This document shows, in pieces, positions 23,467 through 32,675 of a stretch of 52,377 nt of DNA. The notes beneath the pieces are model-generated. The model was given only the letters and a program-made list of their open reading frames with translations, had not been told where the DNA came from and did not search any database. The stretch is taken from positions 1-52,377 of IMG/VR virus record IMGVR_UViG_3300024239_000355. One strand, given 5' to 3'. Within the stretch, counting starts at the first letter, position 1; every line of letters starts with the position of its first letter. The position numbers and the translations under genes were made by a program. The DNA is from a virus.

Positions 23467-24191
23467 ATGACAGTAGTAATCTCTTGTGCAATTTGTGGGT
23501 CAGAACACAAATCGTTTGTGTCGTTGGTCAAACATCTTAAATTTCAGCAAAATTATCCGACTGCGCTGCTCAACAATGGGCAGACCGAGAAACAAACGGT
23601 GAAAAACAACGCATCATAGAGAAAACGACTGAAACAAATCGCCAGCTTATAGCCGCTATGACCGAGCAAGAACGCAAAGACCGATTTGGTTGGATGAACA
23701 AATTATCTACAGAAGAAAAACAAGAAAAAATAAAAATGCTTTTGGATAGAGGACTTGGTAAATGGAAACCAAAATCAGACGAAGAAAAACATCAAATATA
23801 CCAGAGAATTAGGAATAAAATGGTTACAAATGGTATTTGGTTGGACCGTGAACAACTGAATATGTCCGACTGGTATGATTATTCAAATATGGTGCGAAAA
23901 TTAACTGACGCCACATATAGAAAACACAAGCAACAGATTAACCCCAATAATTTACCTCGCCGACGAGGGTACTATCATGTGGATCATATTTTCAGTATAT
24001 ATGATGGGTTCATTCATGAAGTGCCAATAGAAGTAATGGCGGCTCCGGTTAATCTTCAAATGTTAACCGAAACCTCTAATAGTTCAAAAAATAACAAAAG
24101 TTGGTGTACGGTAAACGAGCTATATCAACGCTACAATGAATGGTCGGGCGTGGGAGGATCGAACTCCGTTCCTGTTCAGGAAGTAGCTTGA
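23467..24191 (+). pseudogene. HNH homing-endonuclease-like gene, apparently frameshifted near 23540
   Basis: N-terminal CAIC..H finger out of frame with the downstream YHVDHIFS...NLQML..NSSKNNK domain; AT-rich. Confidence 0.55.
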
Positions 24192-24226
24192 GAGGCTACC
24201 GACCGCACCAGCAGTCTTCACGCCCG
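24141..24226 (-). tRNA. tRNA with Glu anticodon CTC, 8/4 fold, long variable arm
   Basis: CGGGCGTG/CACGCCCG acceptor, loop CTCTCAA, T-stem GGAG/CTCC, encoded CCA. Confidence 0.8.
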
Positions 24227-24231
24227 ATAGA

Positions 24232-24315
24232 TGGTCCGAGGTGGGGGAATCGAACCCCGAGCCTTGCGGCGGCAGATTGAAGGTCTACTGATCATCCCAG
24301 TAATCTTCACCTCGG
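24232..24315 (-). tRNA. tRNA with Glu anticodon TTC, 8/4 fold, variable arm
   Basis: CCGAGGTG/CACCTCGG acceptor, loop CCTTCAA, T-stem GGGG/CCCC, CCA. Confidence 0.8.
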
Positions 24316-24320
24316 TAAAT

Positions 24321-24402
24321 TGGCAGCGCATGGGGGAATCGAACCCCAGGATGATCCACTCGGGTGAAAACCGAGCCGCCGTACCCAGCAGCATCATGCG
24401 CT
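24321..24402 (-). tRNA. tRNA with Glu anticodon TTC, 8/4 fold
   Basis: AGCGCATG/CATGCGCT acceptor, loop TTTTCAC, CCA. Confidence 0.8.
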
Positions 24403-24403
24403 A

Positions 24404-24478
24404 TGGTCCCCCGTATCGGATTCGAACCGATGTCCCTGGATCGAGAATCCAAGTGTCCTTCCCATAGACGAACGGGGG
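24404..24478 (-). tRNA. tRNA-Glu(CTC)
   Basis: 7/5 cloverleaf, loop TTCTCGA, TTCGAAT T-loop, CCA. Confidence 0.85.
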
Positions 24479-24489
24479 ATAACCGTAAA

Positions 24490-24617
24490 TAAGACCTAAG
24501 AAAAAACCTCCATGTTTACCTTTTTGGTCTTAACCTTCAATAAGAAGCCCAACCCGAGCTTCTTATTGAAGGTTATGTCCCTATCCTTTAACAAGCGACG
24601 CGCCAATTAAAGGATAG
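24490..24617. repeat. three consecutive inverted repeats in the tRNA spacer
   Basis: Includes a perfect 18-bp stem TAACCTTCAATAAGAAGC (24531-24575) and an 11-bp stem (24581-24617). Confidence 0.85.
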
Positions 24618-24698
24618 TGGTCCCCCGTGTGGGGGTCGCACCCACCTGAACCTCTCGTTGAAAGCGAGATGATCACACTAACCGCAATCCCACGGGGG
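24618..24698 (-). tRNA. tRNA-Glu(TTC), atypical D and T loops
   Basis: Loop CTTTCAA, T-loop TGCGACC, CCA. Confidence 0.8.
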
Positions 24699-24707
24699 AT
24701 ATTTTAT

Positions 24708-24782
24708 TGGTGACTCCGAGGAATTCTGCCATCCCATTGCCCGCTTGAAAGGCGAGTGTCCTTACTTTTAGACGACGGAGCC
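24708..24782 (-). tRNA. tRNA-Glu(TTC), atypical T arm
   Basis: GGCTCCG acceptor, TCGTCT..GGAC D arm, loop CTTTCAA, CCA. Confidence 0.8.
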
Positions 24783-24819
24783 ATAAAAACTTCAAACGTT
24801 ACTTGCACCTCAACCCATT

Positions 24820-24894
24820 AAAAAAGCCGCTTAGATCGATCTCTCTAAGCGGCTGCCGTTCACGCTGGACCTGATACCAGCATGTTGAGCAGCC
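24820..24894 (-). promoter_or_regulatory. attenuator: overlapping antiterminator and terminator
   Basis: GGCTGC..CATGCTGG/CCAGCGTG..GCAGCC hairpin overlaps the terminator AGCCGCTTAGA/TCTAAGCGGCT-TTTTT. Confidence 0.75.
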
Positions 24895-24927
24895 TTAACT
24901 TTCTTCTTCCACCACGAACACGAACAT
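24895..24927 (-). CDS. Glu leader peptide MFVFVVEEES
   Basis: AAGGA Shine-Dalgarno 8 nt upstream; GAA GAA GAA AGT TAA. Confidence 0.7.
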   Translation of the reverse strand: MFVFVVEEES

Positions 24928-25041
24928 CTTACTCATCCTTCTGCTGTGCTACCTTGTAGCACGATCATGCTATTTTCTAGTAAGGTCACCATGACCTTAC
25001 CAGTTTTAGGTAAGAGCTTACCAGAAAATGGTAAAGCTCCG

Positions 25042-25317
25042 ACCGGGTGTCCTAGACCGCTAGACGACCGCCAGGGAGTTGTTAACTTTACCCCGGCAGG
25101 CAAGGATTCGAACCTTGCGTTTCCCAGTTCTGGCGGGCTAATCAAGCCCGAAAAACTCCGGTGTCCTAAGCCTCTAGACGATCAACGGGCGATCAACTCC
25201 GCTGAGTGGGATTCGAACCCACGTTCCCCGGTTCTTGAGGGCACGTCTTGTGCATCGACCTTCCCGCTCGGTAACGATCCGCCTCGGTAGGGGAGTCGAA
25301 CCCCATCCCCGCACAAG
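25042..25317 (-). ncRNA. three circularly permuted tRNA-like modules (YrlA-like topology)
   Basis: T arm, then closed acceptor hairpin, then D arm at 25247-25317, 25156-25232 and 25042-25128. Confidence 0.65.
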
Positions 25318-25357
25318 CCACTCACCTTTCGTGGCGCCGAAGCGCCGTGCCCAACTC

Positions 25358-25921
25358 TTACACCAAGTCAGCCCGATGGCTCTCGATGTATTCTCTCACC
25401 ACCGAAGGAAGTGCCACGTCCCGAGTAGTTCCGTCCGGTTCCCCGCAGCATTCACAACAATGGTTCAACTCAGTGGTGATCCCGGTTTTGACAAATATTT
25501 CATCACCAACCTGAACCATCTTCTCATAATCGACAAGACTATTCACCGAAACCATAAACGGCACTGCCGTTTTTTTCCCACTCGGGGCAGTGATCAGCAC
25601 GTTCTTCTTGCCGACACGCCAGCCCCAAACTTCCTTACCAATGGTCAGGTTGCGCTCGCCTTTGGCTTTCTTCCGAACCAGTCGTTCGCGATTGGCGCAC
25701 ACATACTGGACCAGATGCTCCTTGGATAATTGCCAAGTAGCAAGCAGTCCGCATGCCTCGACAATATCCCATTCCTGCACAACCTGTTCTTTACCATCCA
25801 CTGGTGAGATGAAGATTACGTATTGTCTTCCCCAATTCACCCGCTTGCGGCGGTACTTCCACGTCTCCCCCTCCACGACGATTTCATAAATGGGGTTCAT
25901 CACTACTTTCTGTTTACCCAT
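25358..25921 (-). CDS. hypothetical protein inside the tRNA-Glu operon
   Basis: 187 aa with a CCECC motif, immediately downstream of a tRNA-Glu. Confidence 0.7.
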   Translation of the reverse strand: MGKQKVVMNPIYEIVVEGETWKYRRKRVNWGRQYVIFISPVDGKEQVVQEWDIVEACGLLATWQLSKEHLVQYVCANRERLVRKKAKGERNLTIGKEVWGWRVGKKNVLITAPSGKKTAVPFMVSVNSLVDYEKMVQVGDEIFVKTGITTELNHCCECCGEPDGTTRDVALPSVVREYIESHRADLV

Positions 25922-25948: not shown

Positions 25949-26025
25949 TGGTGTCCCCAACGGGTGACGATCCCGTTTTTTCGCCTTGAAAGGGCGATGT
26001 TCTAACCAACGTAAACTATGGGGAC
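25949..26025 (-). tRNA. tRNA-Glu(TTC)
   Basis: GTCCCCA/TGGGGAC acceptor, loop CTTTCAA, T-loop ATCGTCA, CCA. Confidence 0.85.
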
Positions 26026-26106
26026 AAAAACAAAACCGCCTCACATTCGCGGGCGGTTCCAACTCTGCCATCAGGGCAAAATTAAAGCCGCCCTTGATGA
26101 GGCGGC
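26026..26106 (-). terminator. tandem terminators between leader peptide and tRNA-Glu
   Basis: GCCGCC..GGCGGC-TTTAATTTT and AACCGCC..GGCGGTT-TTGTTTTT. Confidence 0.7.
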
Positions 26107-26131
26107 TCGGCAAGCAGACATGCTCAACGAA

Positions 26132-26185
26132 TCACCCCATCGGGTTGCGTTCTTCCTCGCGTTCGCGTTCGAGCATGACAATCAT
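26132..26185 (-). CDS. Glu leader peptide MIVMLEREREEERNPMG
   Basis: AGAGGA Shine-Dalgarno; 5 Glu codons in 7 positions; TATAAATA at 26253-26260. Confidence 0.7.
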   Translation of the reverse strand: MIVMLEREREEERNPMG

Positions 26186-26413
26186 GGTACTAAATCCTCT
26201 GGTTCTTGCCGCTTAACGGCGTGTCTCGTTTGTGCCGACGTATCGACAAACCTATTTATACAAACAACGCTTTTTGGCGTCAAATTCTTTTTATGGTGGG
26301 TCGGGCGTTCTGCCCGACCAAGCCGCGTTGTGGTGGTATTTATACAAGCTGGTTCGTGGATGTCAACTAGAAATTTCTTAGATAACGAAAAGGCGGGTTT
26401 CCCCGCCTTTTTG

Positions 26414-27235
26414 TTACGCCGGTTGTTTCTGCGCCAGATCACGAATTACGGAGAAGTTCACCTGATAGCCGGGAATACGATAGTAACCTTCACCCAGGCA
26501 CCCGTGGTATACTTCGGTCAGGAAACGGGGCGGCATCTGGGCGACGATCCCGGTCAGGGTATCCTTATCAAGACCAAGAAGGTACTTGATGGGGCGCACG
26601 ATCACATGATGTCCGTCCTCACGAACCATCCGCAAATAATCGTCCGGTGACTTGATAGCGGCGAAATTCAGTGCCGCTTCGACATCAGGCGAATTGCCGT
26701 AATAGTTGGCGAAGTAGAGGAAGAACGCATCATTTTGCATACGTTCTTTTTCCAGAATCTCCACCAGTTTGTCTTCGTGGGTGCCGGTGATTCGCACATC
26801 ATCGATGAAGATCAACAATTTACCTTTCAAGAACTGCTTGTTCATGAAGAAGCGGTCATTGTCGATCAGACCCTTGCGTTTTTCCTTGGACAGGAACCCA
26901 TAGTCATTGGTGTATGACACCTTGCGATGGATGATCGTATATTCGACGTGACCACCGTTTGCCAGCACGAGGTGTTCATTCAGGCGATTGACGAAATGCT
27001 TCGTCATAATGGTCGCGGCGTTCTCGACATGATTGTACGGTGACGGGATCACCACACATTGATTTGCCAGCAGTACGTCGGTATGTGCGGCGAAGAAGGC
27101 ATCGGCAAGCTGATACCCGAACTTGCGGGCAATCACATCTGACCCGAATTTGAGCGCCGAATAGTCCGCAGGGCTGAAAGCTGCGTCTTCGAGGTCGTAG
27201 AAACCGTTGACGTAAAACCGAGAATGCGCACCCAT
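26414..27235 (-). CDS. phosphoribosyltransferase-fold protein (Ter-cluster type)
   Basis: LLIFIDDVRITGTHE PRPP-binding loop. Confidence 0.8.
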   Translation of the reverse strand: MGAHSRFYVNGFYDLEDAAFSPADYSALKFGSDVIARKFGYQLADAFFAAHTDVLLANQCVVIPSPYNHVENAATIMTKHFVNRLNEHLVLANGGHVEYTIIHRKVSYTNDYGFLSKEKRKGLIDNDRFFMNKQFLKGKLLIFIDDVRITGTHEDKLVEILEKERMQNDAFFLYFANYYGNSPDVEAALNFAAIKSPDDYLRMVREDGHHVIVRPIKYLLGLDKDTLTGIVAQMPPRFLTEVYHGCLGEGYYRIPGYQVNFSVIRDLAQKQPA

Positions 27236-29373: not shown

Positions 29374-29652
29374 CTAGAGCTTAACCAGAACGATTTCGAC
29401 CAAAATGGTTTCGCGAAGCTCTTTGGTAAGGGCAACACGCTCTTCCTCGATGTGCGGGAACGCCTCGATCACTTCCGCCCATTCAGTGGTGTTGGCGGCA
29501 AACGCCAACTTGGCCGCTGATTTGGCGAACGTGATGAATTCGTCAGTCTTGGCAGCGAAGTCGGTTTGTGAAAGTACCGTTACCACGGCAGCACCCTTGT
29601 TCTGGGTAGTCGAATCTGAATGAATATATGTCTCAATGCGACCAGTGCGCAT
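29374..29652 (-). CDS. mini EF-Ts-like protein
   Basis: GRIETYIH...SQTDFAAKTDEF resembles the EF-Ts core ETDFVA motif; AGGAG Shine-Dalgarno. Confidence 0.7.
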   Translation of the reverse strand: MRTGRIETYIHSDSTTQNKGAAVVTVLSQTDFAAKTDEFITFAKSAAKLAFAANTTEWAEVIEAFPHIEEERVALTKELRETILVEIVLVKL

Positions 29653-31074: not shown

Positions 31075-31692
31075 TTACTCAGCGAACTCTTCCCACTTGT
31101 TCCCGAAAACCTGTTTCAATTTATCGAGATAGGCGCGGGTCTTGACCTTCGCCATCCAAAGCTGGTGTCCAGCACCACCCTTGGCAATCACACCTTCAGC
31201 GCCTTCAGGAACGAATTCGCCGTTTCGCACTCGCTCGATGAACTCTTTGTTGAAGTTGCCCTCGTAGACAACTTCCGCAGCGAATTCAAGATCACCGAAG
31301 TGATCAAGGAACTCTTTCGGTCCCAGGAACCCTTTTCGATGTAGCTGAACATCGAACACTCGGAGTTCCTTGGTTTCGCCCTCGACGTGAGTTCCGGCGA
31401 ACGAGGATGGTCCGAAAAACTCTGCGAACACCGTGGCTTGTTCGAGTTGTCGGAAGTCGTCCCGCAGTACCTTTTCAAGAGGCTCTGCATATTTGGACAT
31501 GAACAACGGGATTGCTTCACCCAGTTGATCATCCGACGCATCAATCAAACGAGTGCGACTTCCGAACTTGTGAAAGCCGCGCTTTTTGGTCCATTCGAAG
31601 CGCAGATTGGAACCATCATACTTGTGGAAAGCTACACATGGCTTTCCGAGCGGAGCGCGAGCCGCGCCCACGATACTTGGATACGATTTCAT
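31075..31692 (-). CDS. RNA-ligase-like nucleotidyltransferase
   Basis: HKYDGSN, FAEFFG, VFDV, EGVIAK and KVK motifs. Confidence 0.8.
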   Translation of the reverse strand: MKSYPSIVGAARAPLGKPCVAFHKYDGSNLRFEWTKKRGFHKFGSRTRLIDASDDQLGEAIPLFMSKYAEPLEKVLRDDFRQLEQATVFAEFFGPSSFAGTHVEGETKELRVFDVQLHRKGFLGPKEFLDHFGDLEFAAEVVYEGNFNKEFIERVRNGEFVPEGAEGVIAKGGAGHQLWMAKVKTRAYLDKLKQVFGNKWEEFAE

Positions 31693-32340: not shown

Positions 32341-32514
32341 ATATTTCCAAAAACAAACTCAACAACCACCGTTTCAATGACTACGCTTTTACTCTTCCTC
32401 GAAACCATCGTCAACAAAAATTTTCAATTAAACCAAATATTTCTTCGAAGCTCTTCAACTTATACTTTAACAATACTTCTCCGTTACTGACTTCAAGTCA
32501 GACACGCAGGCAAT

Positions 32515-32590
32515 AAAAAAAGGTCGCTTCCATTTGGAGCGACCTTTATCCCAGAAACCGGGCAATAAAAAAGTCGCTCGGTGGCGACCT
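32515..32590 (-). terminator. tandem duplicated terminators upstream of the tRNA-Asp array
   Basis: AGGTCGC..GCGAC(C/T)-T-tract-ATTGCC twice. Confidence 0.8.
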
Positions 32591-32615
32591 TCTTACGACT
32601 ACGTGCGCAAGTTGA

Positions 32616-32675
32616 TCACCACGAGGTGGTATCCTCGTTGGTATCTCGGTCAGCGGTGTAAGCGCGCATGGTCAT
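32616..32675 (-). CDS. leader peptide MTMRAYTADRDTNEDTTSW
   Basis: AAGGA Shine-Dalgarno; 3 Asp and 5 Thr codons; TATAAATA at 32743-32750. Confidence 0.6.
   Translation of the reverse strand: MTMRAYTADRDTNEDTTSW

Follow-up and report, generated by a model that had tools for sequence, protein, structure and literature searches.

A tRNA-Glu gene of a jumbo phage is preceded, on its own strand, by a very short reading frame rich in Glu codons and by two hairpins with CCGCC/GGCGG arms. The question raised by this locus is whether the phage makes its tRNA-Glu in response to the supply of the very tRNA that the gene encodes. The window analyzed here is the first 52 kb (52,377 nucleotides) of virus record IMGVR_UViG_3300024239_000355, a jumbo-phage contig of 195,192 bases that is about 63% complete. 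Among cultured phages, those nearest to its terminase are the Sinorhizobium phage Phosso (55%), PA5oct-like phages (54%) and Atu_ph07 (49%). Since the record encodes a permuted tmRNA of the alphaproteobacterial type, its host is likely an alphaproteobacterium.

At the default threshold of ARAGORN the tRNA genes of the contig specify Glu and Asp only, and all of them lie in the window on the minus strand; no tRNA-Arg rose above this threshold in the part of the genome that the contig covers. Genes for TyrRS, CysRS, GroEL/ES, an RNA ligase and an EF-Ts fragment are found near the tRNA genes, and a search of the contig for GluRS and for a class II Asp/Lys/Asn synthetase found none. A 92-aa protein (29374-29652, minus strand) that matches the start of the EF-Ts domain has the Glu tRNA block on one side and the Asp tRNA block on the other.

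The leader in front of the tRNA-Glu gene

The leader region, in the following called gate A, is listed in Table 1 together with the other features discussed below. The elements that an earlier note had read from the sequence, i.e. TATAAATA, AGAGGA, the short ORF, the CCGCC/GGCGG motifs and the tRNA-Glu, were all recovered base for base, with CCGCC at 26105 and 26056 and GGCGG at 26092 and 26040 on the minus strand. The contig has 15 TATAAATA sites, and 4 of them are preceded by TTGAC: two at gate A, one at the Asp leader described below and one at the tmRNA locus. A GC-rich hairpin (26337-26284, minus strand) separates the two promoter-like sites of gate A and would be carried by any transcript from the upstream one.

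Table 1 Positions of the leader, hairpin and tRNA features in the window.
Feature	Positions	Strand	Basis
Upstream promoter-like site: TTGACA, 16 nt, TATAAATA (26366/26344)	26337..26366	-	putative promoter function
Proximal promoter-like site: TTGACG, 17 nt, TATAAATA (26260-26253)	26253..26283	-	sequence; putative function
Shine-Dalgarno-like AGAGGA, 9 nt 5' of ATG 26185	26195..26200	-	sequence
Leader ORF A, 17 codons, MIVMLEREREEERNPMG then stop	26132..26185	-	sequence; predicted ORF
Segment 1 (codons 4-7), predicted partner ~26119-26130 without ribosome, so that T1 forms	26166..26177	-	folding
Antiterminator strand (end of ORF A), 9 bp with 26096-26104 = T1 5' arm	26133..26141	-	folding
T1, terminator-like hairpin, 9 bp, -16.2 kcal/mol, broken U-tract	26085..26108	-	folding
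Relay helix Y: T1 3' arm 26093-26088 with T2 5' arm 26056-26051, enclosing 12-bp hairpin 26086-26058	26051..26093	-	folding
T2, terminator-like hairpin, -15.0 kcal/mol, U-tract 26035-26026	26026..26058	-	folding
tRNA-Glu(UUC), 7/5 cloverleaf, encoded CCA	25949..26025	-	ARAGORN; Rfam 52.8 bits
ORF187, 187 aa	25358..25921	-	ORF; two homologs, 41% and 43%
Three tRNA-like elements with T-arm and no regular anticodon arm; D-arm-like fragments	25026..25367	-	tRNA searches
Gate B: leader MFVFVVEEES then stop (24927-24895), competing 7-bp helix, single terminator 24854-24825	24815..24927	-	folding
Six tRNA-Glu-like genes behind gate B: 4 UUC, 2 CUC; several with 8/4 or long variable arms	24141..24782	-	Rfam, ARAGORN
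Leader C switch: antiterminator, tandem terminators and relay before three tRNA-Asp genes	32514..32675	-	folding

The leader ORF of gate A (leader A) carries Glu at codons 6, 8, 10, 11 and 12 (four GAA and one GAG) and Arg (CGC) at codons 7, 9 and 13. Its Glu excess, 5 of the 16 codons after the start, has a binomial probability of about 0.001 given the phage's own codon use, and when the control codons are scored against the downstream genes leader A outscores 34 of 34 other tRNA sets. A Shine-Dalgarno-like sequence and a short leader ORF stand upstream of the tRNA-Glu as expected for an attenuator, with putative control codons that fit the gene downstream, and the stop codon lies 106 nt from the tRNA. 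The tRNA itself has an unusual T-loop, in which A54/U58 replaces U54/A58, and T-loops of this kind are also found in further tRNA clusters of phages. The earlier view depends on this tRNA having no promoter of its own past the terminators, and our results agree with this: a scan of 26190-26026, i.e. inside leader A and up to the tRNA, gave no promoter-like site, and there is no room for a separate promoter because the U-tract of T2 directly adjoins base 26025 of the tRNA.

Predicted folding of leader A

The leader A region is more strongly folded than expected (z = -3.7, with none of 200 shuffles as extreme), and two terminator-like hairpins with U-tracts are predicted to terminate transcription between the leader and the tRNA. 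The second of these, T2, escaped a simple terminator scan because of a bulge. The U-tract of T1 is interrupted (3 U, 2 A, 4 U) and doubles as one strand of the 12-bp hairpin between the terminators. T1 may terminate leakily or do no more than relay.

Ribosome positions were modeled by placing a 12-nt footprint on each codon in turn and folding the RNA outside it. If no ribosome is present, T1 forms with a probability of 1.00, codons 4-7 being paired with the stretch 3' of the stop codon. With the ribosome at Glu codons 6, 8 and 11 the T1 probability drops to 0.01, 0.01 and 0.08, whereas it is 0.60 and 0.83 at Glu codons 10 and 12 in the equilibrium calculation, and from codon 13 to the stop it is back at 1.00. 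A 15-nt footprint gives antitermination at Glu codons 6, 8 and 10 only. When the transcript is ended before the T1 3' arm, the T1 5' arm is sequestered through codon 13, all five Glu codons included. For T1, an exclusive antiterminator exposed by a Glu stall is thus predicted at three of the five Glu codons at equilibrium and at all five in the truncated transcript. When the upstream RNA was shuffled 150 times, the complete switch pattern appeared in one shuffle. Until the T1 3' arm emerges, the antiterminator forms even with no ribosome present, and the switch window includes the three Arg codons.

Relief of T2 is a different matter. The read-through fold is more stable than the terminating fold (-51.6 vs -45.3 kcal/mol), but once T2 has been fully transcribed a long hairpin between the T1 5' arm and the T2 3' arm (-59.9 kcal/mol) beats the read-through fold at any ribosome position. 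The relay helix forms earlier, yet it is not the equilibrium fold after T2 completion. Since the long hairpin wins at equilibrium, T2 relief depends on kinetics, and read-through requires the early helices to last while the polymerase passes the U-tract; the barriers toward the long hairpin are estimated to be 9.5-11.8 kcal/mol. This weak point could be a flaw of the folding model or a filter that requires a long stall.

The earlier note had proposed an attenuator whose shared arms could cross-pair, with no definite antiterminator. By folding we find both an antiterminator and a relay that extends its effect to T2, which supports and extends the proposal. On these predictions gate A is most probably a ribosome-coupled transcription attenuator, predicted to admit the polymerase to the tRNA-Glu genes only during a stall at Glu codons. 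Transcription would start at the TTGAC/TATAAATA promoters and the leader ORF would be translated. With ample charged tRNA-Glu the ribosome would reach the stop codon and cover 26141-26133, T1 and T2 would form, and transcription would stop short of the tRNA-Glu. During a Glu stall, 26141-26133 would instead pair with the T1 5' arm, and the freed T1 3' arm would take the T2 5' arm, so that a single stall is predicted to disable both hairpins. Read-through would then yield tRNA-Glu(UUC), ORF187 and the tRNA-like remnants, which follow in this order and presumably lie on a single transcript, before the polymerase arrives at a second gate, which precedes six further Glu tRNAs and would likewise sense GAA. 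In the last and least certain step, the tRNA product would replenish the sensed pool and close a feedback loop, the likely trigger being that a defence nuclease, or decay driven by infection, removes the tRNA-Glu of the host.

Classical leader-peptide attenuators include trpL, hisL, thrL and pheM-pheST. Like these, gate A has a short ORF with control codons and mutually exclusive 1:2, 2:3 and terminator helices, and termination is predicted without translation or with a ribosome at the stop codon. Unlike these, it would control phage tRNA genes, so that the output would be the sensed molecule; in addition, a predicted relay helix links two terminators and a second probable attenuator follows in the unit. 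T-box riboswitches, which bind tRNA directly and need no ORF, read tRNA status by a terminator/antiterminator choice, as gate A is predicted to do. A T-box as the identity of gate A was rejected, as no T-box family in Rfam matches up to E = 1. A full-text literature search, confined mostly to papers outside subscription, found no description of attenuators before phage tRNA genes.

The Rfam family RcsR1 (RF02552) matches the T1-T2 region with 31.7 bits, below the cut-off of 60, T2 being the part that resembles the RcsR1 terminator at this sub-threshold level. According to the accessible text of PMC6614838, RcsR1 is the trp attenuator RNA of Sinorhizobium, trpL/rnTrpL. Besides this score, leader A has no Trp codon and is followed by tRNA-Glu instead of trpE(G), and identity with RcsR1/rnTrpL was rejected; as far as sequence goes, the likeness hints at an origin of gate A from a host attenuator. 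One could also imagine that the region acts in trans, as a small RNA or peptide like rnTrpL, or that it is the shadow of a protein gene on the plus strand. The weak RcsR1 match agrees with the former, as does the accessible text of PMC6614838, where attenuator RNAs can act in trans, and a 210-codon plus-strand ORF across 26018-26650 agrees with the latter. However, a role in trans would supplement attenuation rather than replace it, the three overlapping ORFs have no Pfam match, and the long ORF is antisense to a clear PRTase gene, and we consider both forms of this explanation extremely unlikely.

A second Glu gate and an Asp leader

ORF187, missing from the earlier note, lies between the tRNA-Glu and the tRNA-like elements and has no Pfam, PHROG or Atlas match. 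The region upstream of it is non-coding, because its two homologs share the start Met at 25921; for the same reason a 251-codon extension from a TTG start, running through the tRNA, was rejected. The tRNA-like elements may be decayed tRNA genes or, going by their shape, decoys, and they look alike under both readings.

Gate B lies about 1.1 kb past gate A. Its leader contains three GAA codons and no Arg codon, and its competing helix half-disrupts the terminator (0.45, 0.35), a behavior seen in 1 of 300 shuffles. The two Glu leaders had been described as unrelated in sequence, with which our alignments agree (303 of 500 shuffles align equally well). In the direction of transcription, gate A is followed by tRNA-Glu(UUC), ORF187, three T-arm-bearing remnants, gate B and six Glu tRNA-like genes. 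No TATAAATA-like or TTGAC-type site was detected across the 1098 nt separating the gates, and no minus-strand terminator was called between them. It is therefore probable, judging from sequence, that the two gates are wired in series on one transcript; the earlier note had inferred a two-tier control. Both gates read GAA, and therefore any tiering must stem from the stall length or from the failure of the first tRNA; that they act as graded tiers in either of these ways is hypothetical, and we rate it as a possibility somewhat short of even.

The tRNAs behind gate B had been called an exotic set. This holds for part of them: two of the six are drawn by ARAGORN with an 8/4 arrangement, but two others are drawn as ordinary 7/5 tRNAs. 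The accessible text of PMC5389517 describes 8/4 allo-tRNAs with an 8-bp acceptor and a 4-bp T-stem, a geometry shared by some of the gate B tRNAs, which, unlike the allo-tRNAs described there, bear Glu anticodons. Three tandem tRNAs with Glu anticodons (24141-24402, minus strand) have tRNA-Sec as their best Rfam score (49.4, 36.7 and 34.5 bits), and with their long variable arms they may be charged by a different synthetase. A long perfect hairpin (24580-24529, minus strand) lies within the same tRNA block.

A sister switch, leader C, repeats the tandem design of gate A and precedes the three tRNA-Asp genes. Its ORF (32675-32616) has 19 codons with Asp at codons 9, 11 and 15, and folding places the antiterminating window at codons 9-15, exactly from the first to the last Asp (1 of 150 shuffles); the Asp count by itself is not significant (p = 0.1). 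The barrier is 7.1 kcal/mol and T2 of leader C wins at equilibrium. Leaders A and C have no common sequence outside the promoter. Leader C also holds five Thr ACC codons. Elsewhere in the Asp region (32774-31808, minus strand) a tRNA-like element is found near 32200-32120, and the RNA ligase gene (31075-31692) lies directly behind the region. Between the leader C terminators and the first tRNA-Asp the eye finds TTGACG, 17 nt and TAAAAG (32415-32387, minus strand), a possible weak internal promoter that did not pass the promoter scan.

With the three leaders at hand it can be considered whether gate A is an attenuator that senses general translation speed or several tRNAs (Glu and Arg), and whether gates A and B are independent rather than tiers. 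At equilibrium codons 1-9 all allow antitermination, Arg codons 7 and 9 among them, and the leaders of other phages described below mostly match several tRNAs at once; moreover, the promoter scan would overlook any phage promoter of a different type located between the gates. Still, gates A and B precede Glu tRNAs only and leader C Asp tRNAs only, leader B has three GAA codons and no Arg codon, and the contig, as far as it is complete, lacks a tRNA-Arg at the default threshold, all of which makes a general sensor unlikely.

What purpose a Glu-specific attenuator would serve is suggested by other systems. Host defences that cleave tRNAs and are countered by phage tRNAs include PrrC, PARIS and retron systems. 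For the tRNA-cleaving defence OLD, rescue by phage tRNAs is reported in the accessible part of bioRxiv 10.64898/2026.07.10.737580; there phage tRNAs replace cleaved host tRNAs, which is probably what the Glu and Asp arrays are for as well, whereas tRNA-sensing control of phage tRNA genes does not appear in that part of the text. The accessible text of PMC13191261 names no bacterial Glu-specific nuclease. An inducible tRNA array, the trn operon of Anabaena, is described in the accessible part of PMC8421152, and in that of PMC10272220 it is controlled by the TrcR repressor. Going by these texts, the unit behind gate A would resemble it in being a spare tRNA set turned on under impaired translation, while the Anabaena array differs in being under a protein repressor at initiation and in not being codon-specific; the word "attenuat" is absent from the accessible text of PMC8421152. 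Counter-defence as the purpose of gate A is plausible, and we lean slightly towards it. The joint reading, in which the phage senses anti-tRNA immunity and escalates its response, is more tentative, and we would sooner doubt it than accept it. In a first stage, a long GAA stall would pass the two-terminator kinetic filter and yield one working tRNA-Glu; if decoding were still failing, gate B would in a second stage free rebuilt tRNAs with Glu anticodons that the nuclease could not recognise.

Codon-matched leaders in other phages

A homolog of leader A was not found in viral contigs, metagenome contigs or cultured phages. ORF187 as query gave a single weak match in viral contigs, without tRNAs nearby, and its alignment nothing in viral or metagenome contigs; the neighbouring PRTase found no relatives of the locus, the best terminase identities were 63%, tRNA patterns gave other tRNA clusters or coding matches only, and in blastn against cultured phages the tRNA alone matched.

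The arrangement, as opposed to the sequence, could be looked for in the tRNA regions of phiCbK, Atu_ph07, Phosso, X1, RsoM2USA, LR756501, five IMG/VR loci and the present window. A leader was defined as an ORF that starts with ATG, has 8-50 codons and precedes a terminator, and tRNAs within 2 kb were scored. Such an ORF with a terminator was found at 36 of the 148 tRNA blocks, the other 112 having none. The summed match between ORF composition and tRNAs was 166.5, whereas shuffling the pairings gave 83.1 +/- 10.0 (0 of 5000 permutations), and about ten of the 36 leaders carry this signal. Leaving out the present genome and phiCbK, which had been picked with the answer already known, the match was 120.4 vs 70.7 +/- 9.0 (n = 30, 0 of 5000). 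Both results carry the reservation that some leaders were already in view when the score was devised, that a single background was used and that some loci are related. A detector requiring a Shine-Dalgarno sequence and 6-35 codons gave no clear leader outside the present genome; both phiCbK leaders, which a second detector missed, were found after the requirement was dropped.

In phiCbK 41 of 44 leader residues are drawn from seven tRNA species, and in Atu_ph07 the run RAEAAMFWYPI precedes tRNAs for A, R, F, P, I, Y, W, M and E. Most leaders in other phages are multivalent. The 735-kb phage LR756501 has four codon-matched leaders (L133, L134, L135 and L137). In Phosso, MMSSSSAQR (L111, near 15857) stands before two tRNA-Ser genes with its terminator distant from the stop codon, and its switch point was not found. 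About 1 kb of unannotated sequence in the tRNA cluster of phage X1 (L002, 4979-6005) contains many short hairpins and may be a large non-coding RNA.

A fresh set of loci was collected with a pattern for the unusual T-loop of the gate A tRNA, giving 39 loci of which 13 representatives were examined. An ORF with a terminator was found at 5 of 35 blocks, and all five, from three families, were codon-matched, as assessed without permutation; their antiterminators are visible only in the truncated-transcript view. At five loci where the same tRNA-Glu type opens the block (L140, L159, L145, L154 and L171) no leader was found. Related multivalent leaders occur at L143, L146, L158 and L167, 100-370 nt upstream of the tRNA that opens the block, and their matched residues track the tRNA set. 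Each of them has an EG dipeptide, the codons of which copy the terminator 3' arm. Between L158 and L167, which belong to a leader family other than that of leader A, one helix change on both sides was seen by eye.

Counted from the end of the matched stretch, the codon that frees the terminator arm falls at -5 to +4 in 13 of the 15 leaders examined; this correlation is partly a length effect, and the tRNA sets used for it had been enlarged manually. Two of the 15, leaders A and C, both from the present genome, have tandem terminators. These results bear on the explanation that the hairpins of gate A are a constitutive dampener that fixes a low read-through, or a signal guiding tRNA 5' processing, with the ORF present by chance. 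The long hairpin, as the equilibrium fold at every ribosome position, would suit a dampener, and the U-tract adjoins the tRNA 5' end, the place expected of a processing leader. On the other hand, three matched leaders lie within one window, the shuffle and permutation results speak against chance, and the switch point follows the matched codons in most leaders, so that we regard this explanation as very unlikely.

Why and when phages use their own tRNA genes is a long-standing question. With a codon-matched attenuator of the kind predicted for gate A, a phage would monitor the supply of specific tRNAs and make them on demand, which would favor the replacement of lost tRNAs over a constant support of codon usage. 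Similar mini-genes matched to the tRNAs that follow them occur, by their sequences, in several distantly related phages. To these the gate A locus would add the sensing of a single amino acid, a two-terminator relay and two attenuators in series. Since the same leader layout is found in the cultured phages phiCbK, Atu_ph07 and RsoM2USA, it is testable now. If the escalation reading were true, the leader codons across phages would list the tRNAs that are attacked in each host.
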